Shown in pieces: positions 8,160 through 52,356 of a stretch of 64,000 nt of DNA. A model generated the notes under the pieces. The model saw only the letters and a program-made list of their open reading frames with translations, had not been told where the DNA came from and did not search any database. This DNA is from an uncultured Candidatus Saccharibacteria bacterium (GTDB lineage Bacteria > Patescibacteriota > Minisyncoccia > Phycocordibacterales > UBA12088), in assembly GCA_964567265.1 (NCBI GenBank), contig CAZMLK010000001.1, positions 459,723 to 523,722 on the forward strand, given 5' to 3'. Position 1 is the first letter of the stretch, and every line of letters starts with the position of its first letter. A program made the translations under genes and the position numbers.

Positions 8160-9251
8160 ATGGCATCACTGACCAAAAAGAAGCTCCTCGAGGAGACCGC
8201 CTACAAAAATGACGGCCGGCTTCGCATGCTCTTCGATAACACGAACGAGCACGCCATTTGCATGCTTGATGATCGCGGACAGGTGATCAGCTGGAACATG
8301 AGTGCTGAGAACATGACTGGCTATTCCTCTTCCGACATGATCAGCAAGGACTATGCGGTCATGTTCTCAGCCGATGAACAGAAGCGCAAGGTGCCAGCAA
8401 AGACCCTCGCCCTCGCGGCCAAGAAATCGACGCTGACCGATGAAGGCATTCGCATCCGGAAGGATGGTTCGCACTTCTGGGCACGCTCATTTCTGACGCT
8501 GGTCAAGAAGAGCTCGCGAGGCGCGAATTTCTTCGTGCTCATCATGCAGGACATCACGCTCGGCAGGAAACGGGACCAGCTGCGGGAGAAATACATCGGC
8601 ATCGCCTCTCATGAGCTCAAGAATCCGATCACCACCCTCTCCCTGTATTCCGAACTCCTCGAGAAGCGCCTCGCGCTTGACGGAGACGAGCGGAATCTGC
8701 AGATGTTGCGCGATATCCAGGGACAGGTCACTCGCCTGGTATCACTCGTCGATGATCTTCTCATCGTGAGCAAGATCGGCGGCGACAGATTGCAACCACG
8801 GAAGGAGGACTTCAGCCCAGATACGCTCTTGAAAAAGATCATCCACGATTTCCAGTACAGCAACCCGACCCACAGGATCCATTACACGAGCGCCGGCGTC
8901 CGTCTGGTCCGCGCGGATAAGAATCTCATTACGCAGGTCCTCATCAACCTCCTCACGAATGCGCTCAAATATTCGCCGCAATCAAACAAAATATATGTCC
9001 GTATCATGCGAAAGAACGGCAAGTGCCTCATATCGGTGCAGGACTTTGGCATCGGCATCGCCAAGAAAGACCAGAAGGAGATATTCAGCCGGTTCTTCCG
9101 GACAGATACGACCAGTGCCGGCAACGTCGCGGGCTCGGGACTTGGCCTCTATATCTCCAAGGAAATCATGAAGAAGCACCGCGAACGCCTCTATGTTGAG
9201 AGCGTCGAAGGAAAAGGCAGCACCTTTTTCTTCACGCTTCCAACGGTTTGA
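8160..9251 (+). CDS. Cytoplasmic PAS-domain sensor histidine kinase
   Basis: PAS-like N-terminus; HisKA 'IASHELKNPITTL'; HATPase_c 'VQDFGIGIAKKDQKEIFSRFFRTD...GSGLGLYISKEIM'. Confidence 0.8.
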   Translation: MASLTKKKLLEETAYKNDGRLRMLFDNTNEHAICMLDDRGQVISWNMSAENMTGYSSSDMISKDYAVMFSADEQKRKVPAKTLALAAKKSTLTDEGIRIRKDGSHFWARSFLTLVKKSSRGANFFVLIMQDITLGRKRDQLREKYIGIASHELKNPITTLSLYSELLEKRLALDGDERNLQMLRDIQGQVTRLVSLVDDLLIVSKIGGDRLQPRKEDFSPDTLLKKIIHDFQYSNPTHRIHYTSAGVRLVRADKNLITQVLINLLTNALKYSPQSNKIYVRIMRKNGKCLISVQDFGIGIAKKDQKEIFSRFFRTDTTSAGNVAGSGLGLYISKEIMKKHRERLYVESVEGKGSTFFFTLPTV

Positions 9252-10112: not shown

Positions 10113-10970
10113 TTGCTTCACAGTATGCAACTACGAAAAGCGACGATCGCGATCCTCTCCGTTACCATCCTCGGTGCAGCCGCATTCTCAGCTCCCCTTT
10201 TCTCGCAAGCATCTGCGACAGCATTGGTCGGTCCGATGTATCTCTATACATTCAACAGCCCCGGGAATATCAATGAGACCGGCTCGATGGGCGAAAGCGA
10301 CAGCCCGTACTGGTGGGTCAATTCCGGGGGTGGCGCGGTGATCGTGAATGGCGAGGGAAAGACCCTCCAAGGTGAGCTCCCTTCCCTCTCGAAGTGGCGC
10401 GTATTGTATGCCGCCGCGAACCCGCTCGATACAGACAACGGGTACCATCCGCAGAACATATTCCGTTTCGTATCGAGAAGCCAGTGGCAGGATTCACGCG
10501 AGGAAGCCTATTTCAAGATCGAGAAAGATAACCTGAGCGCGAGCCCGAACCGCAACTCCTCGAATGGGCTCCTGCTCTTCAACCGGTACCAGGACAGCGC
10601 GGATCTCTACTACCTCGGCATCCGTGTCGACGGGACGGCGGTCATCAAGAAGAAGACGGGCGGCACATACTATACCCTCGCGCAGAAGGCCGTATTTCCG
10701 GGGACGTATAATCACAGCAGCAATCCGAATCTCATTCCGAAAAATACATGGATCGGCATCCGAAGCGAAGTCGTGAATAACGCGGACGGGACGGTCAGCC
10801 TCAAGCTCTTCATGGATGCCGGGAAGACCGGAATCTGGACCCTTCTCCTCAGCACGACTGACGACGCGCGCTCCTTCGGCGGCGCGGCCATCACGAACAA
10901 GGGGTACGGGGGCATCCGCACCGATTTCATGGACGTGACCTTCGACAACTTCAGGGAGACGGCGCTGTAA
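10113..10970 (+). CDS. Secreted predicted beta-jelly-roll protein, paralog A of the gene at 51445-52356
   Basis: Signal peptide. Long conserved blocks are shared with the 51445 gene ('SPYWWVNSGG', 'GYHPQNIFRFVSRS', 'NLSASPNRNSSNGLLL', 'YYLGIRVDG', 'IKKK.GGTY.TLA', 'GIRTDFMDV.F'). Confidence 0.65.
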   Translation: MLHSMQLRKATIAILSVTILGAAAFSAPLFSQASATALVGPMYLYTFNSPGNINETGSMGESDSPYWWVNSGGGAVIVNGEGKTLQGELPSLSKWRVLYAAANPLDTDNGYHPQNIFRFVSRSQWQDSREEAYFKIEKDNLSASPNRNSSNGLLLFNRYQDSADLYYLGIRVDGTAVIKKKTGGTYYTLAQKAVFPGTYNHSSNPNLIPKNTWIGIRSEVVNNADGTVSLKLFMDAGKTGIWTLLLSTTDDARSFGGAAITNKGYGGIRTDFMDVTFDNFRETAL

Positions 10971-10982
10971 TCGCGCGCAGAC

Positions 10983-11014
10983 AAAACCCCGCGGCCTTCG
11001 GCCGCGGGGTTTTG
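10983..11014. terminator. Bidirectional rho-independent terminator between convergent genes
   Basis: AAAA-CCCCGCGGCC-TTC-GGCCGCGGGG-TTTT. Confidence 0.6.
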
Positions 11015-11023
11015 GTTTCCTTC

Positions 11024-12757
11024 CTACTGATTCATGAGCGCGACTCCCTGCCCCACCGTGATCGGAGTCATCTGCTTCGATTTCAGATAATCCACCACTT
11101 GCTGGAGGAACGCCGGCGTCACCGCATACTGGTTGCCGCTCGTGTTCACTTCATGGAAGAGAAGGATCACCCAGGTCTTGTTCGCGATCGCCGTATCGAT
11201 ATACGCTTTCGCTTCAGCGATCGTGGTCGCCGCCGCCATCGGCTGCCGCCGGAGCGCATAGCGATCAGTAGTCTTGTCATTGTATCCGCCATCGCTCGAC
11301 CGCCCGGCAAGGAATCCCGCATCCTTCACGATCTGCTGGACCGAAGCATTGTATGCGCCGAGCGGATACGCGAAGTAGCTGACTGGCGAAAGCCCGTTGC
11401 TGGTGAGGTATTGCCGCGAACCTGCGACTTCCTCGGTCGCAGCCGCGGTCGAGAGCATCGTCAGGTCGGGATGGGTCTTCGTATGCGCTCCGATCACATG
11501 GCCCTTGGCCTGCATGTCCTTCACCTGCGCCAAGCTCACATATGCAGGAAAATTGCCTGCGACGTAGTTGGTGACGATGAACTGGTCACTCTTGAATCCG
11601 GCCGCATCGAGGATCGGAATCGCGTTCTGATAGACAGAGAGCCAGCCGTCATCGAAGTTCAAGGAGACATAGCCCTTGTCGAACTTGTTCGGGTCTGACG
11701 CAAGCGGGACCAGGCTGTAATCATCGACCGTGAGCGTCCCGACTCCCTTGATCACATGGAACACGGTCATCGAAACGACACCTGCGGGTACACTGAATGC
11801 CTTCGTGAACTGCTGCCAGCCGCTGCTCGGCGGTACCGCCCCGAGATCGAGATACACGTACGACCCGTCGCTCTTCCTGAACTGCGCAGTCACGTAGGTG
11901 GTTGAAAGTGATTTCGAATAGTCCGTGAACCGGTAAGACCCGCCGGCTGCGACGGTGACATTGTTGAACACCCACTTCGCGTCGCCCGTGGCATAGGAAG
12001 TCATCTGCACCTCCGCGCCATCCGCCCCCGTCCGTCCTGGGACGGGATAGGTGAAGGTGGTTGTATTCGTTCCCCAGCGGCCGGTGGTCCAATTTTCGGG
12101 CAAACCACCTGCTCCGCTCATCTCGAACGAGGGATTCTTGATGAGATTCGAGGTCGCCGGCGGCGTGATGTCGGTAAGGCTCACATTATCGATCTCGAGC
12201 GTACCATTCTGCTTGATGAGATGGAACACCCGCGCGCTCGTGACGTTCGCGGGCACCGTGAACGAAACGCTCCGAGTCTGCCACGAGCTCGGACTTGCAG
12301 GAAGGACCGCGATATTCGGATACATGAAGCCGCCGCCCGAGAGCGTGTACTCGATCGTAAGGTAACTCGGCACGGTCGCGGCATAGGAATCCGCATACGT
12401 GTATGTGCGGCCTGGAGTCACGGCGACCGGCGCCGATGCCCATTTCGCATCACCGCTGCTGTACGCAGATAGCGTCACGCGGGCAGCCTTTGATCCGTCA
12501 CCTGAAGGCACGGGATACATGAAATTCGAGGTGTTGGTTCCCCAACGTCCGCGGATCCATCCGTCGGGGATGTTTGGGGCAGACGGTGAAGCCGACTCGA
12601 ATCCAGGGTTGTAAATGAGGTTGGTTGCAGCCTCCGTCGAGTGAGCATTTCCCGCAAAGAACAGAATCATCATGAAGCTGGCAATGGCGAAGACGCGAGT
12701 AAGGGAACGGACGCCTTCGGAGACGCCGAGAAACCGGGGAAATGTTTTTTCCATGTC
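11024..12757 (-). CDS. Secreted polysaccharide deacetylase (CE4/NodB homology domain) with two tandem N-terminal CBM-like (CBM4/9/22-type) modules
   Basis: Two ~150-aa repeats each start 'NLI(Y/K)NP(G/S)FE...W..GRWGTNT..F.YPVP'. The C-terminal 'YVSLNFDDGW' carries the CE4 DD motif, and 'AHTKTHPDL' the His motif. ATG at MEKTF. Confidence 0.8.
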   Translation of the reverse strand, partial: DMEKTFPRFLGVSEGVRSLTRVFAIASFMMILFFAGNAHSTEAATNLIYNPGFESASPSAPNIPDGWIRGRWGTNTSNFMYPVPSGDGSKAARVTLSAYSSGDAKWASAPVAVTPGRTYTYADSYAATVPSYLTIEYTLSGGGFMYPNIAVLPASPSSWQTRSVSFTVPANVTSARVFHLIKQNGTLEIDNVSLTDITPPATSNLIKNPSFEMSGAGGLPENWTTGRWGTNTTTFTYPVPGRTGADGAEVQMTSYATGDAKWVFNNVTVAAGGSYRFTDYSKSLSTTYVTAQFRKSDGSYVYLDLGAVPPSSGWQQFTKAFSVPAGVVSMTVFHVIKGVGTLTVDDYSLVPLASDPNKFDKGYVSLNFDDGWLSVYQNAIPILDAAGFKSDQFIVTNYVAGNFPAYVSLAQVKDMQAKGHVIGAHTKTHPDLTMLSTAAATEEVAGSRQYLTSNGLSPVSYFAYPLGAYNASVQQIVKDAGFLAGRSSDGGYNDKTTDRYALRRQPMAAATTIAEAKAYIDTAIANKTWVILLFHEVNTSGNQYAVTPAFLQQVVDYLKSKQMTPITVGQGVALMNQ

Positions 12758-12850
12758 CGCATTAAACACGAGTACGGGTGATGGAATGATGAAGACATGG
12801 CGCGCTCTCGTACTTTTCAAATAACATATGCGTGATATCCTATGAGTCAT

Positions 12851-13318
12851 ATGAATACGAAAACAACATCAATACTCATCGGCATCGTCCTTATTCTCGG
12901 AGTCGGCGGCCTCGTCTATTCGATGAAGAATGCGGACTCGGAACCTGCAGTGGTCCCTACCGACACGACGACGAATAGTACCGATACCAGTACCACAGGT
13001 ACCCCTGCAAATGCAGGGACCACAGGCACCGGTACGACGGGGACAACGGCAGCGGACACCACCACCGGGACCGCTGGAGCGGGTGGCTACACGACTGCAG
13101 ACGTGGCGGCACATAATTCAAAGTCGAGCTGCTGGTCAATCATCAACGGCAACGTATACGATCTCACGAGCTGGATCCCCAAGCATCCAGGCGGAGAGAA
13201 TGCGATCCTCCAGCTCTGTGGCACTGATGGCTCCGCGAAATTCAACGGCCAGCATGGCGGCGCAGCGAAGCAGGCGGGCATCCTTGCAGGCTTCAAGATC
13301 GGAGTAGCAGCGAAATAA
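12851..13318 (+). CDS. Membrane-anchored cytochrome b5-like heme-binding domain protein with a Thr/Gly-rich linker
   Basis: TM helix, a T/G-rich low-complexity linker, then 'SSCWSIINGNVYDLTSWIPKHPGGENAILQLCGTDGSAKF' (HPGG cyt-b5 motif). Confidence 0.7.
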   Translation: MNTKTTSILIGIVLILGVGGLVYSMKNADSEPAVVPTDTTTNSTDTSTTGTPANAGTTGTGTTGTTAADTTTGTAGAGGYTTADVAAHNSKSSCWSIINGNVYDLTSWIPKHPGGENAILQLCGTDGSAKFNGQHGGAAKQAGILAGFKIGVAAK

Positions 13319-13319
13319 T

Positions 13320-13706
13320 ATGTCACGCGCAAACCTCGGACTCCTGACGTTGCGGCTCGGACTTGCTGCTCTTTTCCTGTGGTTCGGATTCTCTCAGCTT
13401 CTTGATGGCATCAACTGGGTAAGCTGGGTTCCGGAATGGGCGGTGAATACGCTCCACCTGCCCCCTGCAATGATCGTGCTCGCCAATGGCCTCCTTGAAG
13501 TCGTGTGCGGTGCGCTCCTTGCGCTGGGCATCCTCGTCCGACCGGTCGCGATACTGCTTGCACTCCATCTTGCGATCATCACGATCGAGATCGGCATCAC
13601 TCCGATCGGCGTGCGAGATTTCGGGCTCACCATGGCAACGATCGCGCTGGCGCTTCTCGGAAAAAACATACTGCCGACAAACGGTCAGATCGACACTCCA
13701 CGATAA
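13320..13706 (+). CDS. DoxX-family membrane protein
   Basis: Four predicted TM helices. 'LRLGLAALFLWFGFSQL' is DoxX-like. The gene starts 2 bp after the cyt-b5-like gene. Confidence 0.65.
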   Translation: MSRANLGLLTLRLGLAALFLWFGFSQLLDGINWVSWVPEWAVNTLHLPPAMIVLANGLLEVVCGALLALGILVRPVAILLALHLAIITIEIGITPIGVRDFGLTMATIALALLGKNILPTNGQIDTPR

Positions 13707-13727
13707 CCGTCGTCGCATCGTATACAG

Positions 13728-13757
13728 AAAGCAGCGCACGTGGTGCGCTGCTTTTTT
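13728..13757. terminator. Rho-independent terminator
   Basis: GCAGCGCAC-GTGG-TGCGCTGC followed by TTTTTT. Confidence 0.6.
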
Positions 13758-13818
13758 CATGAGGATTTCACGCAAAGTATGCGTAAGAGCGTATCCATGC
13801 AGGCGTCATGAATAGAGT

Positions 13819-14472
13819 ATGTACAAAACACACACAATCGCGCTTTCATTGATAGCATTGTCAGTATTTGCGATCACCAGCCCAGCCCTCGCCGCAAACA
13901 AGTATAAAAATCAACGTGCAGATAGCCCGACCCGAACCATGCCACGCCAGACGAAACCCGCAACCACCACTCCGCCCGTAGCGACGCCGGCCCCGACTGC
14001 ACCAGTCGGATCCCAGTGTTCTACGGGCTGGTACATTACTGGATACTTCACCCCTGTCGAAAGCGATTACACGGGCGCTACGCGCACCGTCACGGTCGCG
14101 GGTGCATCCTACGCCTTCAATTCCGCGTTTCTGACTGAAGTCGAAACTGAAGGGTGGGGCAGGACGCGTCTCGGCAACTACATCGGGAATTATGACAACG
14201 CCTGGCATTTCTCTGCGACTCCGCTTGATGCCTACGACCACGCGCTCCAGATGGACGCGGTCGCGGTCGATACCACAGTCGTGAAAGCCGGTTCCAAGCT
14301 TACTATTCCGACACTCCCTGCCCCCTTCACGAGCAAGGTATTCACGGCGACCGACATCGGTAATGGGGTCACCGGCAAGCATATCGACGTATATATGGGC
14401 GAGGGCAAGGCTGCAGAAGCCCTGACCTACACCATCACCGGCAATAACAAGACCGTCTGCATCACGAAGTAG
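13819..14472 (+). CDS. Secreted 3D-domain protein (MltA/YuiC-like lytic-transglycosylase-related fold)
   Basis: Signal peptide and Pro/Thr-rich linker. 'LQMDAVAVDTTVVKAGSKLTIP' and 'GVTGKHIDVYMGEG' resemble the 3D-domain Asp motifs. Confidence 0.6.
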   Translation: MYKTHTIALSLIALSVFAITSPALAANKYKNQRADSPTRTMPRQTKPATTTPPVATPAPTAPVGSQCSTGWYITGYFTPVESDYTGATRTVTVAGASYAFNSAFLTEVETEGWGRTRLGNYIGNYDNAWHFSATPLDAYDHALQMDAVAVDTTVVKAGSKLTIPTLPAPFTSKVFTATDIGNGVTGKHIDVYMGEGKAAEALTYTITGNNKTVCITK

Positions 14473-25927: not shown

Positions 25928-26941
25928 TTAAATATTAAATAAGGGACGGATGATCCCCAATCCTGCGAGACCAGCAAGGAGTGCAAAGATGCCGAGGCCG
26001 ATCACCACGATCCCTGCTGACTTGAAGAAAAGCGGAGCATGTTTTGAATGTGCAAACGACACCGAACCGAAGGAAAGGAGCGCGAGCATCGGCAGGGTTC
26101 CAAGCGCGAACGAGAGCATGATCAGAAGTCCCGAGATGAATGATCCGCTTGAAAGCGCGGCGACCTGCATCGCTTGCGTGAATCCACAGGGCAGGAAGAA
26201 TGTACCGATACCGATAAGTATTGGAGCGAAAGTCGAGTGCTCAATTTTTCTGAAATAAGCAAAGATGCCGGTTGGCAAAGCCACTTTGCTTTTCTTAATG
26301 ACACCTATGAGATTGAGTCCAAGGAGTATCATCACACTTGATGCGATGAGACCGAGAATCGCCGAAAAGGTAAAGCTGATACCGATTGCCTTGCCGACCA
26401 GCCCCAACACTCCTCCAAGGACTGCAAATCCGAAGAGTCTACCGCCATGAAAAAGCACAAACTGTTTTTTGCTCGTTTTAGTGCTTTCATCTTGTGCGAC
26501 TTTCGCAGAAAGGGAGAGAATTAAGCCACCTACAATCGCCAGACAGCTTGAGACAGACGCAATGAGACCGATGATAAAGCTCGTTGTCGGTGTTGTCGTT
26601 CCACCAATTCCGAGGTTTAAAATGCCTGATTTTTGTAATATGAAAAACAGGATTAAGAACGCGAGACCAATGGGTATCGCTTTCCAAATAATATCGTCAG
26701 ACTTCTTTTCTTGAATAATCTTCTCGACTGAAAGGGTGTAGCCGTTTGGTTTTATTTTGGCTGTGAGAAGTTGCGCAATCTCCTCGAGGTTTTGATTACT
26801 ATCGGTCTCAATGGTGACCGTTTCTTTTTTCAAGTCAACCTGCGATTTTTGAATGAATGGCTGTTCGTTCAAAACATCTTCAATAAGGATTTTGCATGAT
26901 GCACAGTGAGTGCCAGAAACATGGAATGTAAGTGTTTTCAT
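25928..26941 (-). CDS. Heavy-metal-associated (HMA) domain fused to a CcdA/DsbD-like thiol-disulfide transporter membrane domain
   Basis: N-terminal 'GTHCASCK' (MxCxxC-type HMA motif). The TM domain has 'VSSCLAIVGG' and 'FFLPCGFTQAM', the two CcdA cysteines. Confidence 0.7.
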   Translation of the reverse strand: MKTLTFHVSGTHCASCKILIEDVLNEQPFIQKSQVDLKKETVTIETDSNQNLEEIAQLLTAKIKPNGYTLSVEKIIQEKKSDDIIWKAIPIGLAFLILFFILQKSGILNLGIGGTTTPTTSFIIGLIASVSSCLAIVGGLILSLSAKVAQDESTKTSKKQFVLFHGGRLFGFAVLGGVLGLVGKAIGISFTFSAILGLIASSVMILLGLNLIGVIKKSKVALPTGIFAYFRKIEHSTFAPILIGIGTFFLPCGFTQAMQVAALSSGSFISGLLIMLSFALGTLPMLALLSFGSVSFAHSKHAPLFFKSAGIVVIGLGIFALLAGLAGLGIIRPLFNI

Positions 26942-26950
26942 AAGTTTGTT

Positions 26951-27853
26951 TTATATAACTGCATCAGGCTCCAATTTGCAGAAACGGCCTGTCCTATCTT
27001 TTTCGACCTGCAGGGTTGCGTGACCTATATGGAATCGCTCTCGTAATTTCTCTACCGCATCCTGTAAGACAGAGTCATCGACAACCGCCTCTGCTCTTAT
27101 AAGATGTGCGGTTAAACCTGTTTCTTTGGTGCTTATGCTCCAAATATGCAAGTCGTGAACTGCAACAACACCAGCAAGACCCTTGAGATATTTTTCAACA
27201 TCATCCCTATCAACAGATTCGGGAACCGCATCAAGTGATAGATTAAGAGATTCGCGCATGAGAGACCACGTGGTGAAAATGATCACAGCGGCAATGACAA
27301 TACTGATTACGGGATCAATCCATGCGAATCCTGTTAGCGTAATGAGTAAACCTGCAATGACTACTCCAAAAGAAACACCTGCATCAGCAGCCATGTGAAC
27401 AAATGCACCTCGAATATTGATGTCATTCTTTCGGCCTCTAAGAAACAGCAATGCGGTTACTCCATTGATAACGATACCAACGACCGCTACCCACATGACA
27501 GTACTACCCATAACATTCGCAGGAGCATTAAATCTATGCAAAGCTTCTACAAAAATTCCTCCAGCCGCTACAAAAATAAGAATTGCATTGAAAAGCGACG
27601 TGAGAATAGAACCTCGCCCAAATCCATACGTATGTTTTTTACTTGGTGTCCGAGTAGCAAACCAAATTCCCGCCCATGAAATGAGAAGTCCGAAAACATC
27701 AGTTGCGTTATGGATCGCGTCTGAAGTAAGAGCAAGCGAATGAGAGGCATACCCAAACCACAATTCGGTAATAACAAACAATATATTCAGAGCAAGCCCG
27801 ATAATAAAGGCCAGATTATAATTTTGAGTTTTATGAGAATGATCGTGCGCCAT
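26951..27853 (-). CDS. Cation diffusion facilitator (CzcD/ZitB-like) metal efflux transporter
   Basis: 'HSLALTSDAIHNATD' and 'HMAADAGVSFGV' are CDF signature helices, followed by a C-terminal cytoplasmic domain. Confidence 0.8.
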   Translation of the reverse strand: MAHDHSHKTQNYNLAFIIGLALNILFVITELWFGYASHSLALTSDAIHNATDVFGLLISWAGIWFATRTPSKKHTYGFGRGSILTSLFNAILIFVAAGGIFVEALHRFNAPANVMGSTVMWVAVVGIVINGVTALLFLRGRKNDINIRGAFVHMAADAGVSFGVVIAGLLITLTGFAWIDPVISIVIAAVIIFTTWSLMRESLNLSLDAVPESVDRDDVEKYLKGLAGVVAVHDLHIWSISTKETGLTAHLIRAEAVVDDSVLQDAVEKLRERFHIGHATLQVEKDRTGRFCKLEPDAVI

Positions 27854-27857
27854 AATA

Positions 27858-30167
27858 TTAGAGCTTTGTATTTTTAAGACGCAGCGAATTGGTTACGACC
27901 GTTACACTCTCGAATGCCATAATCGCTCCGGCAATAGCAGGACTTAGAGTCCAGCCAAAAAATGGAAAGAGAATACCGGCTGCGACAGGAATACCGACAG
28001 AGTTGTAGCCGAAAGACCAGATAAGATTTTGCCATATTGTTCGATTGGTCTTTTTTGCAAGATTCACGGCTTCGGCGACTTTGCCGATATCGCCTTTGAG
28101 AAGCACAATATCAGAGCTTTCAATTGCTATATCCGATCCGTCGCTCATTGAGATCGCAACATCTGCTTGTGTAAGAGCTGGCGAATCGTTCACTCCATCG
28201 CCAATCATTGCAACCTTGAAACCCTTCTTTTGAAGATCAGATACGATGTTTAACTTATCCTCTGGCTTCACATCGGCAAATACCTCGTCGATACCAAGCT
28301 CCCGCCCTACCGCATCAGCGGTTTTCCTGTGGTCGCCTGTAGCCATAATAACTTTGAGACCGAGAGATTTGAGTTTAGCGATTTCTGTTTTTGCTTCCGC
28401 CTTGATAGTGTCGTGAATTTTTACGAGCGAGAGCACTTCTTTGTCGTTTGCAAGATAGAGTTCGCGTCCGCTTTCAAATCGACCGTCGTGGAAATCTTTT
28501 CTAATCTGTTCCTCCGACTGCTTGATTACACCGCTCACATAAGCGATCGAGCCGAGGTAGTAGGACATATCTTGGTAGGAGGAAGTAAGGCCCTTTCCCG
28601 GTACTTCTTCAATATCAGAAATGTCAACACTTTTCGCTTTTGCGTCCTTGAGCCAATTTGCAATGCTTGCTGATATAGGATGCTTCGATGATTTCGTCAT
28701 CGAGTAGATGAGCGACTGCTTAAAGCTGGTATCCTCGATATCACAGACATGATTCTCGTCCTTACAAAATATTCCCTCGATGGACAGCTTGTTTTCTGTA
28801 AGCGTACCAGTCTTATCGAATACAATCGCACTTACCTTTGAAAGCTTCTCAAGACTCTCTGCGTTCTTGATGAGAATGCCACGACGCGCACCAGTACCGA
28901 CGCCGGTAATGATTGCAGTCGGAGTTGCGAGACCAAGCGAGCAGGGACAAGCAATCACCAAGACCGCCATAGTGGTAGAGATTGCTAGGGCGAACGCTTT
29001 TGTCATTCCAAATGTTCCCGGCGCAAATATCATCCATGAAGCAAATGTAATGACTGCAAGCACGAGCACAATGTATACGAAATAACCAGAAATCTTGTCG
29101 GCAATCTTTTCTATAGGTGCCTTTGAATTCTGGGCATTATCGACAATGCTAATGATGTGCGCGAGAGCGGTATTCTTAACATCTTTTTCAACCTGCACTT
29201 TCAATAGCCCCTGAAAATTCTGGGTCCCTGCAAATACCACGGCTCCTGATAACTTATCCACAGGCACTGACTCTCCGGTAAGATTAGACTCGTCAACGCT
29301 CGACGAGCCATAGATGACCTTACCGTCAACAGGGATCTGCTCGTTTGGCTTCACAATAACCACGTCGCCAACCTCAACTTTCTCAATAGGTATTTCGATC
29401 TCTTTTCCGTCTCGTTCGATCACAGCAAACTTACTGGTAAGTTGTGCGAGCTTTTGGAGAGCCTCGTTTGTCTTTTTCTTTGCTCGCGCTTCGAGGAACT
29501 GACCGAGGGCAATGAGACCTATCACTATAATAACGACATCATAAAAATTTGAACTAACATCCAGATATTTTGAAAGCGGTGCCTCGAAAGCTGTTACTGC
29601 AAGAGAGTATATAAATGCGACGATAGTCGAGATTCCAACAAGCACATCCATGTTGGCGATACCAGTACGCAAGAAAATCCAGGTAGCTTTGATATATCGC
29701 CGACCGATTCCAAAAAGCACAAAGCTCGCAAAGATCGGCATCAGATGATGGAAGAATTCGTAGATCGTTTCAGGCATTTTCGGGATGATGCCGTTATTGG
29801 ACAGAACATCCCAGAACATCATTACGAAAGAGAAAATAACCATTGGTATGACGAATTTCATTTCGAGGGCCATGTTCCTCACTCCGCTTCCCCTAGAGTG
29901 ATCCATGCGAGCATGATCCTCCGCAGACATATTCATTTCAGCAGCAGTTGTGGCTGTATCTTCAAACTCATAACCGAGGGGGGAAATCACGCTATTGAGA
30001 TTTTCTAACGGAAGCGGTGACGCAGAGAAAACCACCTTTGCTTTTTCATTACCCAAGCCAACCGATACCGACTCAACCCCCGGCACTTTGGCTATTTTGT
30101 TTTGAATAAGAGAGACACAGCTCGCACAGTGCATCCCTTTTACCTTGTATGTGTTTGCTGTAGTCAT
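27858..30167 (-). CDS. copA: Copper-translocating P1B-type ATPase
   Basis: N-terminal HMA 'GMHCASC'; 'CPC' in TM6 ('IACPCSLGLATP'); 'DKTGTLT'; 'GDGVNDSPAL'. Confidence 0.9.
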   Translation of the reverse strand: MTTANTYKVKGMHCASCVSLIQNKIAKVPGVESVSVGLGNEKAKVVFSASPLPLENLNSVISPLGYEFEDTATTAAEMNMSAEDHARMDHSRGSGVRNMALEMKFVIPMVIFSFVMMFWDVLSNNGIIPKMPETIYEFFHHLMPIFASFVLFGIGRRYIKATWIFLRTGIANMDVLVGISTIVAFIYSLAVTAFEAPLSKYLDVSSNFYDVVIIVIGLIALGQFLEARAKKKTNEALQKLAQLTSKFAVIERDGKEIEIPIEKVEVGDVVIVKPNEQIPVDGKVIYGSSSVDESNLTGESVPVDKLSGAVVFAGTQNFQGLLKVQVEKDVKNTALAHIISIVDNAQNSKAPIEKIADKISGYFVYIVLVLAVITFASWMIFAPGTFGMTKAFALAISTTMAVLVIACPCSLGLATPTAIITGVGTGARRGILIKNAESLEKLSKVSAIVFDKTGTLTENKLSIEGIFCKDENHVCDIEDTSFKQSLIYSMTKSSKHPISASIANWLKDAKAKSVDISDIEEVPGKGLTSSYQDMSYYLGSIAYVSGVIKQSEEQIRKDFHDGRFESGRELYLANDKEVLSLVKIHDTIKAEAKTEIAKLKSLGLKVIMATGDHRKTADAVGRELGIDEVFADVKPEDKLNIVSDLQKKGFKVAMIGDGVNDSPALTQADVAISMSDGSDIAIESSDIVLLKGDIGKVAEAVNLAKKTNRTIWQNLIWSFGYNSVGIPVAAGILFPFFGWTLSPAIAGAIMAFESVTVVTNSLRLKNTKL

Positions 30168-30172
30168 ATAGG

Positions 30173-30448
30173 TTATTTTCGCTTAAGTTTATAAACCTTA
30201 AGCACTTCATCTTTTGCCTTATTCGACTGACCCGTGGACATTTGATGATGAACGCAATGATCAAGGTGATTTTCTAATAAAATATCCTCCACATTTGAAA
30301 GTCCTTGTTTGACTGCCGATGTTTGAGTGATCACATTGATGCAGTACGTATCGCTCTCAACCATTTTTTGTAGTCCGCGCACCTGACCTTCAATCAGCTT
30401 GAGTCGGCGAATGACTTTCGCCTTACTTTTTTCGTCCATGTATTTCAT
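30173..30448 (-). CDS. csoR: CsoR/RcnR-family metal-sensing transcriptional repressor
   Basis: 'RRLKLIEGQVRGLQKMVESDTYCINVITQTSAVKQGL' and 'HLDHCV' give the Cys/His/Cys Cu(I) ligand pattern. Confidence 0.8.
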   Translation of the reverse strand: MKYMDEKSKAKVIRRLKLIEGQVRGLQKMVESDTYCINVITQTSAVKQGLSNVEDILLENHLDHCVHHQMSTGQSNKAKDEVLKVYKLKRK

Positions 30449-30457
30449 ATAACAATA

Positions 30458-30475
30458 ATACCCCCTAGGGGGTAT
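30458..30475. promoter_or_regulatory. Perfect 18-bp GC-rich palindrome ATACCCCCTAGGGGGTAT, 10 bp upstream of the csoR start; candidate CsoR operator
   Basis: It resembles known CsoR operators (TACCC..GGGTA-type dyads) and sits at the head of the csoR-copA operon. Confidence 0.5.
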
Positions 30476-30524
30476 ATGTCAAATGAAAATAGTAAAGTCT
30501 GAAGTGGAAGAGTATGATTAGCTC

Positions 30525-33326: not shown

Positions 33327-33342
33327 AATAAGTTTCTAGGTA

Positions 33343-34080: not shown

Positions 34081-34119
34081 ACTCAAGGATAAAAATAAGC
34101 TTAACTGCATCCCATTCCT

Positions 34120-34151
34120 AAAACGACTAGCATAAACATGCTGGTCGTTTT
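34120..34151. terminator. Rho-independent terminator
   Basis: AAAACGACTAGCAT-AAAC-ATGCTGGTCGTTTT (one mismatch). Confidence 0.55.
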
Positions 34152-34155
34152 GATT

Positions 34156-34410
34156 ATGGAAATGAAAATTAAAAAAACAAATAAGACATATCAAACCGCA
34201 GACATGGCATGTGCTGCGGCTCTTTCGCTTTTCTTTCCAATAGAAGCAATAGACCGCACATCGGAGCGAAGGGTTTTCTTCATTTTTGAGAGCACAGAAA
34301 AATTGGATCAATTCGTGCAGATGTTTTGGCGTGGAGAGGTTCAGCTCGAACCAAGGGCATTTTTCGACAGCATAAAGGCGATCAAAACTCGGCTGTACGA
34401 CCAAATTTGA
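34156..34410 (+). CDS. DUF5659-like small protein (phage/CPR-associated family)
   Basis: 'YQTADMACAAALSLFFPIEAIDRTSERRVFFIFESTEKL...FFDSIKAIKTRLY' fits the DUF5659 pattern. Confidence 0.45.
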   Translation: MEMKIKKTNKTYQTADMACAAALSLFFPIEAIDRTSERRVFFIFESTEKLDQFVQMFWRGEVQLEPRAFFDSIKAIKTRLYDQI

Positions 34411-34412
34411 CC

Positions 34413-35762: not shown

Positions 35763-35763
35763 T

Positions 35764-36829: not shown

Positions 36830-36830
36830 T

Positions 36831-46930: not shown

Positions 46931-47086
46931 GCGCACTATGAGAATAGGATGAGCAAAAAAGTGTGAACTTCATTTCATATTGAAACGAAGCACACTCCGT
47001 TTCGTCATCACTGCAGGTGCCCTTCCACGCAAATGAAAGATACGCGTGATCGCGAAGAGTGTTTTGTAAGACTAATCGACACTCCC

Positions 47087-48448
47087 ATGCAACACGACAT
47101 CCTCGAACGACAGGCACACACGACCGTGCGCCTCCCGCTCGCAAAGCGCGCCGAAACCGACCAGAAGCAGATCGTCACCGTGATCGGACTCGGTTACGTC
47201 GGACTCCCCTTGGCGCTCATGGCTGAGACGGAAGGCTACCGCGTATTCGGAATCGATACTGACATCGAAAAAGTCGAGGCATTGAAACGCAAATCAGCAC
47301 CCCATCTCTCAGAACAAGAAAAGAAGCTATTCCAGAAAAGCAAATTCCATATTCGCACGGACGGCAGTCCGCTCGCCGATTCTGACATCGTACTCGTGTG
47401 CGTCCCGACGCCAGTCTATGCGGATCATGCGCCGAATCTCGAGCCCTTGATCGGCGCAACTGAGCTCGTCGCCGCAAACCTTAGCGAGGGACAGCTCGTC
47501 ATCATCGAATCGACCGTGAACCCGGGCGTCTGTGAGGAAGTCCTCATACCTATCCTTGAACGCGTCTCAGGGCTTGCAGCCGGGAAGGATTTCTTCTTCG
47601 CGCACTGCCCGGAGCGCATCAACCCCGGTGATGACCGCTGGACGCTCGCGACCATCAACCGCGTGATCGGCGCTAATGACGCGACCAGCCTCGCGCGTGC
47701 GAGCATATTCTACGAATCCATATTGGATGCGGATGTCTATCCGATGCAATCCCTCAAGGAAGCGGAGGCAGTGAAGATCGTCGAGAACTCATTCCGCGAC
47801 ATCAATATCGCGTTCGTGAACGAGCTCGCGATGTCCTTCGACAAGCTCGGCATCGACGTCACCAACGTCATCAAGGGCGCCTCCACGAAGCCGTTCTCGT
47901 TCATGGCGCACTTTCCCGGATGCGGCGTCGGCGGCCATTGCATTCCGGTGGATCCGTATTACCTGATCTCGTACGCAGCTGAGAATGGCTTCACGCATCG
48001 ATTCCTGTCGGCAGCACGGGAGATCAACAACGGCATGCCGCACTATACCGTCAATCTGATGGCCGGCATCCTCGCCGACGCATACACCGAATCGAAAGCA
48101 TCCCTCGACGGCAAGCAGATCGCCCTCCTCGGACTCTCCTACAAGCGTGATGTGCCGGATCTCCGCGAAAGCCCCGCGCTCGAGATCAAGGAGGAATTGG
48201 AGCGCCAAGGAGCGACCGTCCGCGTGTTCGATCCCTTCCTCCCGACCCAGTCGACCGCGAAAACGCTCGAGGAGGCCATTACCGGAGCTGACGGCATCAT
48301 ACTCGCGACCGACCACTCCGCATTCACGGCACTCACCCCGGCGCTGTGCCGCAAGGCGGGAGTCTCCGCGATCGTCGACGGCCGCAACTTCCTGCCGAAG
48401 GATCGCTTCGTCGCGGCAGGAATCAGCTATAAAGGAATCGGGCGATGA
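47087..48448 (+). CDS. Nucleotide-sugar 6-dehydrogenase (UDP-glucose / UDP-GlcNAc / UDP-ManNAc dehydrogenase family)
   Basis: N-terminal Rossmann 'VIGLGYVGLPLAL', catalytic 'GGHCIPVDP', and a C-terminal UDP-binding domain. Confidence 0.85.
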   Translation: MQHDILERQAHTTVRLPLAKRAETDQKQIVTVIGLGYVGLPLALMAETEGYRVFGIDTDIEKVEALKRKSAPHLSEQEKKLFQKSKFHIRTDGSPLADSDIVLVCVPTPVYADHAPNLEPLIGATELVAANLSEGQLVIIESTVNPGVCEEVLIPILERVSGLAAGKDFFFAHCPERINPGDDRWTLATINRVIGANDATSLARASIFYESILDADVYPMQSLKEAEAVKIVENSFRDINIAFVNELAMSFDKLGIDVTNVIKGASTKPFSFMAHFPGCGVGGHCIPVDPYYLISYAAENGFTHRFLSAAREINNGMPHYTVNLMAGILADAYTESKASLDGKQIALLGLSYKRDVPDLRESPALEIKEELERQGATVRVFDPFLPTQSTAKTLEEAITGADGIILATDHSAFTALTPALCRKAGVSAIVDGRNFLPKDRFVAAGISYKGIGR

Positions 48449-49758
48449 AAAAAAGAAAACTCACAACCTGGAAGCGGTCACTCCGTATCCTCCAGTATCT
48501 CGGACGGAAGACGTATGACGCGGGATTGTGGTTCATATTCTTCTTCATCATCTACATCGTCCTCCTCGTGAAGGTCGCGACCGGATTCTCCGTCCATACC
48601 GATCTCTTCTTCGGATTCTATTCCCTCGCGATCACCCTCTACATCTTCTCGCGCTTCTTCCTGTCGTACTTCCATCGCTCGTTCGAGTACGATCTCGAGT
48701 ACACGCCGACGGTCTCATTCGTGGTGCCCGCGAAGAACGAAGGCGACAATATCGCCCAGACGCTGGAGCGCTTCGCTGAAGTGGACTACCCGCTCGACAA
48801 GATCGAAGTCATCGCCATCAACGACGGTTCTGATGACAACACGCTCGAGGCCATGCAAAAGGCCGCGGCCGCGCTCCGCGACGTGATCGGTCGCGTCGAG
48901 GTCGTGGACTGGAAAGTGAACCGCGGCAAGCGCCAGGGCATGGCCGAAGGCGTGATGCGCTCGAGAGCCGACATCATCATCTTCGTCGACAGCGACAGCT
49001 TCATCGCGCCCGATTGCGTGCGCCATCTCGTGAAGTACTTCGTCAATCCGAAGGTGGGCGCGGTCTCCGGCCACACCGACGTCTATAACCGCGACACCAA
49101 CCTCCTCACCCAGATGCAGGCCGTCCGCTACTACATCGCGTTCAAAGTCTACAAGGCGGCAGAATCCGTGTTCGGGAACGTCACCTGCTGCCCGGGCTGC
49201 TGCTCCGCGTACCGGAGGGAGTATCTCGTCGAATTCCTCGACGCGTGGCTCCACCAAACCTTCCTCGGGAAGGAATGCACCTTCGGCGACGACCGCAGCC
49301 TCACCAATTACATGATCCGCAAGTACGAGGCCGTGTACTCGCCGGAAGCGAAGGCAGAGACCGTCGTGCCGGACAACTTCGGCAAGTACATGCGCCAGCA
49401 GCAGCGATGGAAGAAGTCATGGGTGCGCGAGACATTCATCGCCTCGTCGTTCATCTGGCGCAAGAACCCGATCGCCGCACTCTTCTTCTACATCTACGTG
49501 TTCCTCGCATTCGCCTCCCCAGTGGTCTTCTTCCGCGCGCTCATCTGGTATCCGTACATCCATCACCAGTGGCCGATCGTGTACCTCATGGGCCTCTTCC
49601 TCATGCTCGTCCTCCATGGGCTCTACTACCGCATCAAGGTCGGGCCGCGCGCATGGTTCCTCGCCATTATCAGCTTCTGGTTCAACACGGTGATCCTCAT
49701 GTGGCAGCTGCCCTGGGCAGTGGTCACCATCGCGGACACCCGCTGGGGCACGCGATGA
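48445..49758 (+). CDS. Processive family-2 glycosyltransferase, class-I hyaluronan synthase / NodC-like
   Basis: 'IAINDGSDDNT', 'IIFVDSDSFIAPDC', 'CCPGCCSAYRREYL', 'GDDRSLTNYMI' and 'QQQRWKKSWVRE' (QxxRW), plus multiple TM helices. The ATGA overlaps the dehydrogenase stop. Confidence 0.8.
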   Translation: MKKRKLTTWKRSLRILQYLGRKTYDAGLWFIFFFIIYIVLLVKVATGFSVHTDLFFGFYSLAITLYIFSRFFLSYFHRSFEYDLEYTPTVSFVVPAKNEGDNIAQTLERFAEVDYPLDKIEVIAINDGSDDNTLEAMQKAAAALRDVIGRVEVVDWKVNRGKRQGMAEGVMRSRADIIIFVDSDSFIAPDCVRHLVKYFVNPKVGAVSGHTDVYNRDTNLLTQMQAVRYYIAFKVYKAAESVFGNVTCCPGCCSAYRREYLVEFLDAWLHQTFLGKECTFGDDRSLTNYMIRKYEAVYSPEAKAETVVPDNFGKYMRQQQRWKKSWVRETFIASSFIWRKNPIAALFFYIYVFLAFASPVVFFRALIWYPYIHHQWPIVYLMGLFLMLVLHGLYYRIKVGPRAWFLAIISFWFNTVILMWQLPWAVVTIADTRWGTR

Positions 49759-49783: not shown

Positions 49784-51448
49784 ATGTATTTCGACTTCTC
49801 AACAGAAAAAGTCTCACGGCTCCTGGCGGTCATCGGCATCATGTTCGTGTCCGTGTACGCGATCGTCTCAGCCTATCCGAACTTCAGCGTCACCTACATC
49901 AACGACTGGACCGGCAGCTACGCGAACCGCTCCAAGGCGACGCTCGCCTACTGGTGGTCATACAAGCTCCCGACCGAAGGAAATGCCTACGGCGTGAATC
50001 CGGTCCAAGCGATCGCGAGCCCGCTCGGCTCGTTCTTCGCCGGAATCCGCGAGCGCCTCGGAGGTGCGCCCGTGCACGATTCGACGGCATACGCCGCAGC
50101 TGCGAACGGCGCGGGCGTCGCGCGCTCGATTCCCGTGCTCCTCTACCATGGAGAAAGCGCCGAAAGCCAGAACATACCCCTGGAGCGATTCGTGACGCAG
50201 ATGCGCGCAATCAAGGAGGCAGGGTGGCACACCATCACGATGGAGCAGTTCTACGCCTTCGTGAAGAGCGGCACGCCGCTTCCTGACAAATCCTTCCTCC
50301 TTACCTTCGATGATGGCCGCAAGGACAGCTACTATCCGACCGACCCAGTGCTCCAGGATCTCGGGTTCAACGCCGTCATGTTCGTGGTGACCGGCTATTC
50401 GATGCCGTCAGATACGAGCAAGAAATCGACATTCTATCTCTCGAAGACCGAGCTCCATGAGATGCAGAATACCGGCCGTTGGGAGCTTGAGTCGCACGGG
50501 AAGGAAGACCACGTGTTCTACTACGTCGACGGGAAAGGGACCGAAGGCCACTTCCTCAGCAACAAGCTCTGGCTTCCCGACACAAAGACGCTGGAGAGCG
50601 AGGCTGTATTCAAGCAGCGGATCACGAGCGATCTCGCGGCAGCGAAATCCTCACTCGAGAAGGAATTCGGAAAGCCGGTCATCGCGTTCGCCTATCCCTT
50701 CAGCGACTACGGCCAGGATTCCATCAATTTCAAGGGCTCGAAGCCGATCGTGAACGACGTCGTCGGCTCGCTCTACCAGCTCGCGTTCTACCAGGCGACC
50801 TTCGCGGATGGCGACAGCTTCAACTACCCCGCATCCAAAAACTACATGGTGAAGCGCATCGAGCCGCGCTCGAACTGGGACGGTGCCGCGGTCGTCGCTG
50901 CGCTCGAGAGCGGCCGCGCCAAGGAGCTTCCTTACACCAGCGAATCCTTCGGCCAGGAGTGGCTCCAGACCTGGGGCACCGTGACGAAGAACGGGGGCAT
51001 GCTCTCGCTCGCTGCGAATCCAGACACGACCGGCGCAGCGACCTTCCTCAATGGTTCCGGCTGGTGGAAGAATTACAGCCTGTCCATCACCGTCGCGCGC
51101 CGCACCGGAAGCGACATCATGCTCATGGCACGCCACCAAGATAGCAATAACTACGTCCTCTGCGCGTTCTCCGGCAGCCGTGTCGCACTCCGCGAGAACC
51201 TGGGCGGCGTCCCTCGCATCCTTGGATCGGAGAAGCACACCTTCGCCACGAAGACCGGCAGCGCGGTGCTCGGCATGAACGTCACCGATGACAGCGCGGA
51301 ATGCCTCGTCGACGGAAAGGTGGTGACGCATGGAGAGATGATCAGCCCTGCGCTCCGCCAAGGCGGCGTCGGCGTCCAGGTATGGGATGAGAGGAAGGAC
51401 ACTGCGAGCGCGCGGATCGAGAGCATCTCCATCCTTCCACTCGAATGA
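49784..51448 (+). CDS. Membrane-anchored polysaccharide deacetylase (CE4) with a C-terminal jelly-roll-like domain
   Basis: 'FLLTFDDGRKDSYY' carries the CE4 DD motif, then a His motif; the C-terminal ~170 aa look beta-rich and lectin-like. Confidence 0.8.
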   Translation: MYFDFSTEKVSRLLAVIGIMFVSVYAIVSAYPNFSVTYINDWTGSYANRSKATLAYWWSYKLPTEGNAYGVNPVQAIASPLGSFFAGIRERLGGAPVHDSTAYAAAANGAGVARSIPVLLYHGESAESQNIPLERFVTQMRAIKEAGWHTITMEQFYAFVKSGTPLPDKSFLLTFDDGRKDSYYPTDPVLQDLGFNAVMFVVTGYSMPSDTSKKSTFYLSKTELHEMQNTGRWELESHGKEDHVFYYVDGKGTEGHFLSNKLWLPDTKTLESEAVFKQRITSDLAAAKSSLEKEFGKPVIAFAYPFSDYGQDSINFKGSKPIVNDVVGSLYQLAFYQATFADGDSFNYPASKNYMVKRIEPRSNWDGAAVVAALESGRAKELPYTSESFGQEWLQTWGTVTKNGGMLSLAANPDTTGAATFLNGSGWWKNYSLSITVARRTGSDIMLMARHQDSNNYVLCAFSGSRVALRENLGGVPRILGSEKHTFATKTGSAVLGMNVTDDSAECLVDGKVVTHGEMISPALRQGGVGVQVWDERKDTASARIESISILPLE

Positions 51449-52356
51449 TGGCGCGCGCACGAAACATGAACCCGTTCGTTCGGAAAAACCTGCTCAGGCT
51501 CTTCATTGCGATCAGCATCCTTGAAGCGATCATCATCCTCTGGAGGGATATCCCCCTCACCCGCGTGCTACCCGATGATCGGAATACGTCATCGCATGTC
51601 GAAGCCGCAGAGCTCCACGCGCCCACAACATTCAACTTCGATGGAACGCGAGCAGTCACGGAAGCCGGTGAGATGGAGGAGAGTGGCGATTCCTACTGGT
51701 GGCTGAACTCCGGAGCATTCCTGTACATCGATAACGGAGCAGCACGGACCGTCTCCGGCGAGCTGCCCTTCCTCTCGTACTGGCGCATCCTCTACGCGAA
51801 GACCAGCGGCGTCGACACCGATCGCGGCTACCATCCGCAGAATCTCTTCCGCCTCGTGAGTCGCAGCGACTGGGAGGACGTCAGCATGACCGCGTACTTC
51901 CGCATCGACCGGGACAATCTGAGCGCGAGCCCGAATCGGAATGCGTCGAACGGCCTTCTTCTCATGACGCGCTACCATGACGGCGACAACCTCTACTATG
52001 CAGGCATCCGCGTCGACGGGAATGCGATCATCAAGAAGAAGATCGGCGGCACGTATTTCACCCTCGCGGAAAAGAAGATCTTCGCAGGCACCTATGACCA
52101 CGATAAGAATCCGAGCCTCTTGCCGATCCATGAGTGGGTGGGGCTCCGGAGCATCACAAAAAATAACCCCGACGGGACCGTGACCGTCACCCTCCTCATG
52201 GACCTCAAAAGCACGGGCGAATGGAAGGAAATCGCGAGCGCAGTAGACAGTGGGAAGGAACTCGGCGGAGCGCCGCACCTTGCTGCCGGCCATATAGGCA
52301 TCCGCACCGACTTCATGGACGTGAGTTTCCGCGAAGTGAGTGTCGCTGCGCCCTAG
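51445..52356 (+). CDS. Secreted predicted beta-jelly-roll protein, paralog B of the gene at 10113-10970
   Basis: It shares long identical blocks with the 10113 gene, and its ATGA overlaps the CE4 stop. Confidence 0.7.
   Translation: MMARARNMNPFVRKNLLRLFIAISILEAIIILWRDIPLTRVLPDDRNTSSHVEAAELHAPTTFNFDGTRAVTEAGEMEESGDSYWWLNSGAFLYIDNGAARTVSGELPFLSYWRILYAKTSGVDTDRGYHPQNLFRLVSRSDWEDVSMTAYFRIDRDNLSASPNRNASNGLLLMTRYHDGDNLYYAGIRVDGNAIIKKKIGGTYFTLAEKKIFAGTYDHDKNPSLLPIHEWVGLRSITKNNPDGTVTVTLLMDLKSTGEWKEIASAVDSGKELGGAPHLAAGHIGIRTDFMDVSFREVSVAAP

Follow-up and report, generated by a model that had tools for sequence, protein, structure and literature searches.

Several synthase-dependent polysaccharide operons, including pga, pel, psl, bcs and alg, encode a hydrolase or lyase, and AlgL, BcsZ, PslG, PelA and the C-terminal domain of PgaB trim or release the polymer in these systems. 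Carbohydrate-binding modules (CBMs) are typically found in tandem arrays and appended to varied catalytic domains, a behaviour that is rare for catalytic domains themselves; CBM66, for instance, binds the terminal fructosyl residues of levan and is appended to enzymes of glycoside hydrolase (GH) family 32. In jelly-roll lyases and hydrolases the active site is formed by residues on the sandwich's concave sheet, and the residue set used by the lyases is Arg, Gln or Asn together with Tyr or Lys. CPR bacteria (those of the candidate phyla radiation) and the archaea known as DPANN account for a substantial part of the diversity of microbes and spend their lives attached to other cells, and their surface chemistry is scarcely known. 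Here we describe a family of jelly-roll proteins, termed JR, of which two copies (JR-A and JR-B) are encoded in a 64,000 nt stretch of DNA, hereafter the window, from an uncultured Candidatus Saccharibacteria bacterium (GenBank assembly GCA_964567265.1, contig CAZMLK010000001.1, positions 459,723 to 523,722). Our tentative reading, guided by structural models, is that JR may be an exported, likely non-catalytic glycan-recognition subunit, similar to a lectin or CBM, of a synthase-dependent surface polysaccharide system.

The original prediction for this DNA had paired JR with a polysaccharide deacetylase, but the conserved partner is a whole operon and not the deacetylase alone. JR-B is the last gene of a compact operon on the plus strand (47033-52356), in which it follows genes for a nucleotide-sugar 6-dehydrogenase (DH), a glycosyltransferase of family 2 (GT2) and a deacetylase of carbohydrate esterase family 4, here named CE4B (Table 1). 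The first and last junctions are 4 nt overlaps (ATGA), and approximately 25 nt separate the GT2 and CE4B genes. The DH scores far above the cutoff of the TIGR03026 subfamily hidden Markov model (394.5 bits against 189.8), and its nearest structures range from the UDP-ManNAcA dehydrogenase 4r16 (E 6e-72) through UDP-GalNAcA dehydrogenase and Cap5O (to 3e-61), with UDP-glucose dehydrogenase matching only at 1e-35; its family membership is firm on sequence, and the substrate suggested by these neighbours is of the UDP-N-acetylhexosamine type. The GT2 belongs to the class of hyaluronan synthase (HAS), NodC and chitin synthase, as it matches PF03142 (Chitin_synth_2) at 94 bits against a cutoff of 27, has the motifs GDDR at residue 281 and QQQRW at 318, and contains three or more hydrophobic segments. 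Among PDB entries it is best matched by hyaluronan synthases, those of Chlorella virus and of Xenopus (E ~1e-32), and no chain annotated as chitin or cellulose synthase is among the PDB matches listed at E<=1e-5. The best NCBIfam match is to NodC, at 185 bits against an equivalog cutoff of 550, so the GT2 is not NodC itself.

The AlphaFold2 model of CE4B (pLDDT 87.7, pTM 0.86) divides into a catalytic and a C-terminal domain. The former most closely resembles the de-N-acetylases of poly-N-acetylglucosamine (PNAG), namely PgaB, BpsB and IcaB, both by Foldseek (E 1e-17 to 1e-14) and in sequence matches, whilst scoring below the PgaB and IcaB equivalog cutoffs (95 bits against 321.9 for TIGR03938, and 51 bits against 248 for TIGR03933). 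The C-terminal domain (residues ~393-552) is closest to CBM66 (Foldseek E 3e-10, TM-score 0.78). A protein was assigned to CE4 if it scored above the PF01522 cutoff and contained, besides an Asp-Asp motif (xFDDG), the metal motif His-x(3,4)-His. CE4B qualifies with 48.9 bits (E 8e-13), TFDDG at 174 and HGKEDH at 238, as does CE4A, the neighbour of JR-A, with 88.8 bits (E 3.5e-25), NFDDG at 398 and HTKTH. Each JR gene therefore lies beside a CE4 deacetylase, as had been claimed.

The association recurs in other genomes. A scan of one genome per species yielded 264 JR-encoding loci, of which the best 79, holding 93 JR copies, were examined. Searches with the window proteins (tblastn) recovered the order DH, GT2, CE4B with its C-terminal domain, and JR repeatedly among these loci. 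For 53 of the 93 JR copies there is a CE4 domain no more than 1.5 kb away, and for 36 copies a CE4B gene is found immediately 5' on the same strand. When open reading frames (ORFs) were clustered without bias, the widely shared families were JR (79/79 loci), CE4 (61/79), GT2 (60/79) and DH (at least 31, a count limited by the length of the flanks), with histidine kinases the next commonest (20/79). In a reciprocal search of metagenome contigs through the GT2, CE4B followed by JR was found at seven of the eight loci that had a close GT2 orthologue and enough downstream DNA. The one operon that has no JR is at L088; its next gene encodes a PMT_2-type glycosyltransferase, which proved uninformative as a candidate functional replacement. 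Natural fusions join CE4 to JR (P0132, P0259 and P0260), or a heparinase-II/III-like domain to CE4 and JR (P0150 and P0170). The original prediction was to be given up if the pairing of JR and CE4 were absent from related genomes, and the pairing is conserved. Architectures of the CE4A type, with CBM4_9 domains, adjoin 14 JR copies in variable orientation, and at L018 a single cluster contains, in this order, a GT2 fragment, CE4B, JR, CBM-CE4A and a JR-JR gene.

Two further observations concern the neighbours of JR. CE4B homologues of approximately 750-810 aa (P0287, P0295, P0319, P0327 and others, including those of loci L008, L025 and L072) are longer by some 230 aa; that these ~780-aa proteins are CE4B-JR fusions was rejected, as none contains a JR domain, and two matches to the CBM66-like C-terminal domain in L008, L025 and L072 suggest a tandem duplication of that domain. 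PAS histidine kinases are encoded beside both JR loci of the window (8160-9251, 41184-42512, 43656-44810 and 45218-46621), and the histidine kinases near JR loci may represent two-component control of the polysaccharide genes.

Within the window, JR-A and JR-B are 54% identical over 247 aa (BLASTP, E 1e-99), which marks them as paralogues, and no third copy was found there by tblastn. The original prediction attributed long near-identical blocks to these 285- and 303-aa proteins: long identical blocks are indeed present (DNLSASPNRN, GIRVDG..IKKK and GIRTDFMDV), although 'near-identical' overstates the overall similarity. Its description of a duplicated two-gene module has to be abandoned. CE4A and CE4B are only 27% identical over 143 aa (E 2e-7) and differ in architecture, the former combining two CBM4_9-like repeats with a CE4 domain similar to HfsH and PdaB, and the latter a PgaB/IcaB-like CE4 domain with the CBM66-like C-terminal domain; the two are thus not duplicates, and the JR gene alone was duplicated. 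The described layout was accurate, with pair A convergent and pair B coupled through the 4 nt overlap at 51445-51448. Two of the start codons merit comment: JR-A has an alternative ATG at 10125, giving 281 aa, which is probably the true start because the 97%-identical homologue P0001 was called as 281 aa, and the probable start of CE4A is at 12757 (577 aa).

Each JR copy has a single N-terminal hydrophobic segment followed by a beta-sandwich. In JR-A this segment ends in a signal-peptidase-like SQASA/T and has the appearance of a cleavable signal peptide; the segment of JR-B resembles a membrane anchor. An anchor of this sort, a single N-terminal transmembrane (TM) helix like that of CE4B, is what would be expected if JR were a structural subunit working together with the synthase or deacetylase, guiding the nascent chain in the manner of BcsB, with its conserved residues engaged mostly in protein-protein contacts. 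The frequency of GT2 genes near JR, the existence of JR-CE4B gene fusions and a level of conservation that matches the synthase would all be consistent with such a role. It nevertheless seems very unlikely to us, as JR-A and many homologues look cleavable or secreted and are encoded far from a synthase gene (39 kb in the window), and JR is also present in GH6, GH5 or PG-binding proteins that need no synthase.

The AlphaFold2 model of JR (pLDDT 91.7, pTM 0.83) has an N-terminal helix and then a beta-sandwich of the concanavalin A (ConA)-like lectin/glucanase fold, closest in the model to CBM66/DUF1080; together with the hydrophobic segment, this bears out the earlier description of a secreted jelly-roll protein. 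The first five Foldseek matches are all to CBM66 (4b1m, 4azz and 4b1l; E 1e-7, rmsd 2.6-3.6 Å), with TM-scores of 0.71-0.82 when normalised on the target and just 0.47 for the query, and the modelled protein can be divided into a CBM66-like core and an added, conserved N-terminal subdomain of approximately 80 residues. Further matches include DUF1080 3-keto-glycoside hydratases, VIP36, GH16 lichenases and lyases of the polysaccharide lyase (PL) families PL14, PL28 and PL7; below the top five, lectins (VIP36, galectins, LNS domains and neurotoxin Hc) are frequent and mixed with enzymes of the same fold. Sequence identity to the Foldseek matches is 8-16%. CBM66 is the nearest structural neighbour of both JR and the CE4B C-terminal domain, and a profile-profile comparison of these two gave a weak but suggestive match (hhalign E 1.8e-4, probability 49%).

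That the family could not be placed from the sequence alone is borne out by the searches, with no significant match to JR found in Pfam (single sequences and 37 aligned members, up to E=10), NCBIfam or the PDB (sequence and profile). The lone signal was between JR-B and PF06439 (3keto-disac_hyd/DUF1080), at 16.1 bits and E 0.012, below the gathering cutoff of 26.8; this family did not match JR-A, and matched just one of the 37 members even at E<=10. The proposal that JR is not obviously a GH16 or PL7 enzyme by motif likewise stands for both window copies, and was extended to 173 JR domains. The GH16 motif E-[ILV]-D-[IVAF]-[VILMF](0,1)-E occurs in none of them, with no Pfam match to GH16, and the PL7 motifs R(S/T)E(L/V)R, Q(I/V)H and YFKAGxYxQ occur in four, two and none respectively, never in the window copies and never as a full set; Pfam Alginate_lyase2 did not match JR. 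On these motifs, assignment to either GH16 or PL7 was rejected. A role as a simple polyanion binder also gained no support from global charge, as JR is not globally basic (isoelectric point 5.6-6.2).

The modularity of JR resembles that of a binding domain. Two or three JR-matching stretches, mostly full tandem copies and in a few cases partial ones, are found in 22 of 150 JR representatives. The domain is fused, at its N- or C-terminal side, to GH5, to GH6 (with PG_binding_1), to CE4 and to heparinase-II/III-like domains with CE4, as well as to PKD, BACON, FG-GAP and PG_binding_1 alone; GH32 was not among the fusion partners seen. The tandem JR-JR proteins (P0121-P0139; loci L018, L065, L067, L071 and L076) include one with three JR and eight PKD domains. 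In genomes the JR-JR fusions typically lie 3' of a CBM4_9-CE4A gene, and in several of the proteins the N-terminal repeat is more degenerate yet retains the R-D-G-I-K-K-K core.

The conservation of JR points in another direction. Across the 22 loci with a complete operon, median identity to the window is 55% for JR, 57% for GT2 and 56% for DH, but lower for the catalytic CE4 domain (43%) and the CBM66-like domain of CE4B (31%); by this measure of sequence, JR appears as constrained as the synthase and dehydrogenase, which is enzyme-like and not CBM-like. In the 173 JR domains, which come from clusters formed at 50% identity or less, 18 residues are at least 94% conserved (G72, G110, Q114, N115, R118, R147, Y167, G169, R171, D173, G174, K179, K181, Y186, D250, G267, D271 and D274), and 13 of these are polar or aromatic, the other five being glycines, again an enzyme-like pattern. 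CE4B already has its own CBM66-like domain, so a second pure binder seems redundant, and clustering of ORFs from the loci revealed no hydrolase or lyase gene in the operon other than the candidate JR itself. All four points weigh against JR being a glycan-binding subunit.

These same observations favour JR as the polymer-cleaving enzyme of the operon, representing a new family of beta-jelly-roll lyases or hydrolases that trims or releases a polymer of N-acetylhexosamine (HexNAc) and uronic acid. The near-invariant residues would suit this role, comprising R171-x-D173-G, K179-x-K181, D250, D271, D274, Q114-N115, Y167 and Y186; the dehydrogenase implies that a uronic acid substrate would be available; PL14, PL28, PL7 and GH16 are among the Foldseek matches; and the conserved N-terminal elaboration lies beyond the CBM66 core. 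Judged by hairpin register in the model, L154, R158, Y167, G169, R171, K179, K181, Y186 and T188 would share one face of a four-strand meander, the conserved Arg, Lys, Tyr and Asp residues of strands 152-193 alternating onto that single face of the sheet. Against catalysis stand the JR-JR(-JR) arrays and the fusions to unrelated catalytic domains, including proteins in which JR is already paired with a heparinase-II/III-like lyase domain. There is also no GH16 or PL7 motif and no invariant pair of Glu residues, 29% of domains have another residue in place of the single conserved His (H112), and the protein nearest in structure is a CBM without catalytic function. We gave modular promiscuity and tandem repetition slightly more weight than conservation, and so favour a glycan-binding partner, regarding a lyase or hydrolase as a doubtful, if substantial, alternative.

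In the scheme that we infer for JR as a glycan-recognition subunit, DH would oxidise a UDP-N-acetylhexosamine to the corresponding UDP-N-acetylhexosaminuronic acid, and the HAS/NodC-like GT2 would polymerise and export a HexNAc-based chain that is probably acidic through its uronic acid content. Held by one TM helix, CE4B would partly de-N-acetylate this chain outside the membrane with the help of its CBM66-like domain. JR would then bind the chain through its conserved face, and either keep the polymer on the surface of the cell or offer it to deacetylases; the predicted binding patch, which seems to extend over one side of the sandwich, comprises Q114, N115, R118, R147, R158, Y167, R171, D173, K179, K181, Y186, D250, R269, D271 and D274. 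JR-B would act from the membrane, and JR-A as a secreted protein in partnership with the CBM4_9-CE4A enzyme. Despite the distance of 39 kb, CE4A and JR-A may be considered a dispersed extension of the operon system, because all of these genes are contiguous in some genomes.

JR is widespread, with 1,668 matches after clustering at 90% identity and 765 representatives at 50%, 364 of them below E 1e-30. All named homologues in NCBI and JGI are called 'hypothetical protein', the sole other label being the automatic UniRef name 'Beta-xylosidase C-terminal Concanavalin A-like domain-containing protein', and searches of the literature found no description of the family or its operon. By the labels on genome bins, most loci belong to Patescibacteria (Paceibacteria/Parcubacteria lineages). 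Ten are in DPANN bins labelled Woese-, Pace- or Nanoarchaeota (L010, L011, L026, L041, L048, L051, L052, L056, L068 and L069); their JR copies form one clade in the neighbour-joining tree, are 50-57% identical to the bacterial copies, and are accompanied by DH-GT2 genes in several cases. The compact operon of DH, HAS-like synthase, PgaB-like deacetylase and JR recurs in many CPR-labelled bins, and is rearranged in those labelled DPANN. At the archaeal-labelled L010, for instance, DH-GT2 genes are found with a DUF2334/CE4-type deacetylase that takes the place of CE4B and whose gene diverges from JR, and genes for GlmS and a Laminin_G_3 protein are nearby; ORFs of this deacetylase-like family occur at five further loci. 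Five other loci, in a separate clade, are from Acidobacteriota/Vicinamibacteria bins (L027, L033, L040, L045 and L062) on contigs of up to 1.25 Mb; these have no HAS-like GT2 nearby, and some have a CE4B-like gene on the opposite strand. The star-like tree has no split between copies associated with CE4A and CE4B, and JR subfamilies tied to one or the other were therefore rejected. No phage copies were found in viral_contigs, and a search of BFVD with JR returned only generic ConA-like tail proteins.

This distribution bears on whether JR might be an adhesin for a glycan of the host, of a partner cell or of the environment, co-expressed with a capsule operon for episymbiotic attachment. JR is found chiefly in CPR bacteria and in DPANN archaea, most of which are episymbionts, and is fused to surface-display domains such as PKD, BACON, FG-GAP and PG_binding_1. 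Patescibacteria have been reported, as a general remark, to encode many ConA-like lectins presumed to serve in attachment (PMC12911398). On the other side, the hosts of CPR and DPANN cells vary widely yet JR remains 50-60% identical, when an adhesin facing the host would be expected to diversify; translational coupling to, and fusion with, the deacetylase point to a self-made polymer; and JR also occurs in the Acidobacteriota bins with megabase contigs. In our view an adhesin is likewise very unlikely.

Two parts of the window away from the operon genes may also be mentioned. Following CE4A, at 12842-14472, a cytochrome-b5-like protein that is secreted, a membrane protein of the DoxX type and a protein with a 3D domain (RlpA/MltA-like) are encoded, and this neighbourhood of JR-A, CE4A, cytochrome b5, DoxX and 3D-domain genes is also kept in a close relative (L110, 7719-9346). 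At the far end of the window (58779-63086, minus strand) lies a second cluster of synthase type, so that a synthase and a hydrolase are paired in the same genome: it encodes a processive-looking GT2 of 444 aa (PF13641/PF13632), 23% identical to that of the operon, a 512-aa GH26-like protein (PF02156, 27 bits) and an unannotated ORF of 392 aa.

Table 1. Positions of the JR genes and associated features in the window.
Feature	Position	Strand	Description
JR-A	10113..10970	+	285 aa from TTG; exported ConA-like (CBM66/DUF1080-like) protein
Putative terminator	10982..11014		Bidirectional intrinsic terminator hairpin between the convergent JR-A and CE4A; GC-rich, 15-bp stem, A-run and T-run either side
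CE4A	11024..12850	-	Hydrophobic N-terminal anchor, two CBM4_9-like repeats, CE4 domain (HfsH/PdaB-like)
DH	47033..48448	+	Nucleotide-sugar 6-dehydrogenase; first operon gene; stop overlaps GT2 start (ATGA)
GT2	48445..49758	+	Processive synthase of the HAS/NodC/chitin-synthase class; multi-TM; DSD, CCPGC..SAYRR, GDDR and QQQRW motifs
CE4B	49784..51448	+	N-terminal TM helix, PgaB/BpsB/IcaB-like de-N-acetylase domain, CBM66-like ConA-fold C-terminal domain (~393-552)
JR-B	51445..52356	+	303 aa; ConA-like, putative membrane anchor; fourth operon gene

The DNA directly 3' of the operon (52376-54614) encodes a protein of the glyoxalase/VOC fold, a membrane protein with a DedA/VTT domain and a glycosyltransferase of family GT4, and ORF clustering found none of these genes to be conserved beside JR at other loci. 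Between the two JR loci, the region at 25928-38441 looks like an integrated element. It contains heavy-metal genes (DsbD_2 with HMA, a CDF transporter and a P-type ATPase with HMA), a gene for a 933-aa DUF4365 protein and a large serine recombinase gene (36813-38408), the 3' end of which abuts or overlaps the only tRNA gene of the window (38370-38441, minus strand).

It is probable that the operon shapes the cell surface in CPR and DPANN organisms, where it predicts a HexNAc polymer that is partly deacetylated and probably acidic. JR itself is a large family without curated assignment, comprising over 1,600 clusters at 90% identity, and as an expressible target it could provide CAZy with either a new CBM or a new lyase or hydrolase family, as well as a handle on how an adhesive envelope is built. 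A bolder proposal would have JR found a jelly-roll family of lyases, hydrolases or transglycosylases for a glycosaminoglycan-like polymer of HexNAc and HexNAc-uronic units, with the operon building an adhesive, partly de-N-acetylated capsule for host attachment that CPR and DPANN came to share through ancient inter-domain transfer; as a whole, this seems unlikely. The components of the operon are all of known kinds, making this an incremental advance and not a change of paradigm.

Among described proteins, the closest to JR are those of CBM66/DUF1080 (PF06439), which have the same ConA-like beta-sandwich and provide the best PDB neighbours of both JR and the CE4B C-terminal domain; their structures include the levan-binding module of Bacillus subtilis SacC (4azz and 4b1m) and 3-keto-glycoside hydratases/eliminases (8v31, 8tda and 8rr2). 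The C-terminal strand pattern is similar, being G.IGLQ....V.FRNI in DUF1080 and G-I-R..F..V.F in JR, and JR, in the manner of a CBM, is appended to varied catalytic domains. JR differs in its non-significant sequence match (identity 11-14%), in the additional N-terminal subdomain, in being far more conserved than typical CBMs, and in its context of a synthase operon, as opposed to GH32 or the catabolism of 3-keto-sugars. The jelly-roll lyases and hydrolases (PL7, PL14, PL28 and GH16) are of the same fold class (Foldseek E 1e-6 to 1e-4), and the conserved residues of JR also seem to lie on the concave sheet; the differences are an identity of just 8-13% and the repeated or appended nature of the JR module.

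At the level of the operon, the PNAG systems (pgaABCD and icaADBC) similarly combine a processive GT2 with an extracytoplasmic CE4 de-N-acetylase. The operon described here has no PgaA, PgaD, IcaC or IcaD, its synthase is nearer to HAS and NodC than to PgaC, and a nucleotide-sugar dehydrogenase is coupled to it; in CE4B, the GH153 domain of PgaB is replaced by the CBM66-like domain, and JR follows as a separate protein. As in the operons of class I hyaluronan synthases (hasA and hasB), the dehydrogenase and synthase genes are adjacent and coupled, and the GT2 shares the GDDR..LTN and QQxRW motifs of those synthases, but the dehydrogenase is closest to those acting on UDP-ManNAc or UDP-GalNAc(A), not to UDP-glucose dehydrogenase. 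The partnership of a synthase with a NodB-type CE4 enzyme recalls NodC and NodB, although the equivalog cutoffs of NodC, PgaC, PgaB and IcaB all lie above the scores of the operon proteins. To our knowledge, neither the has nor the nod systems include a JR-like partner. Judged on the sequences of its components, the operon is of the synthase-dependent exopolysaccharide type, mixing the has-like features of a dehydrogenase and a class-I-like synthase with the CE4 de-N-acetylase characteristic of pga and ica.

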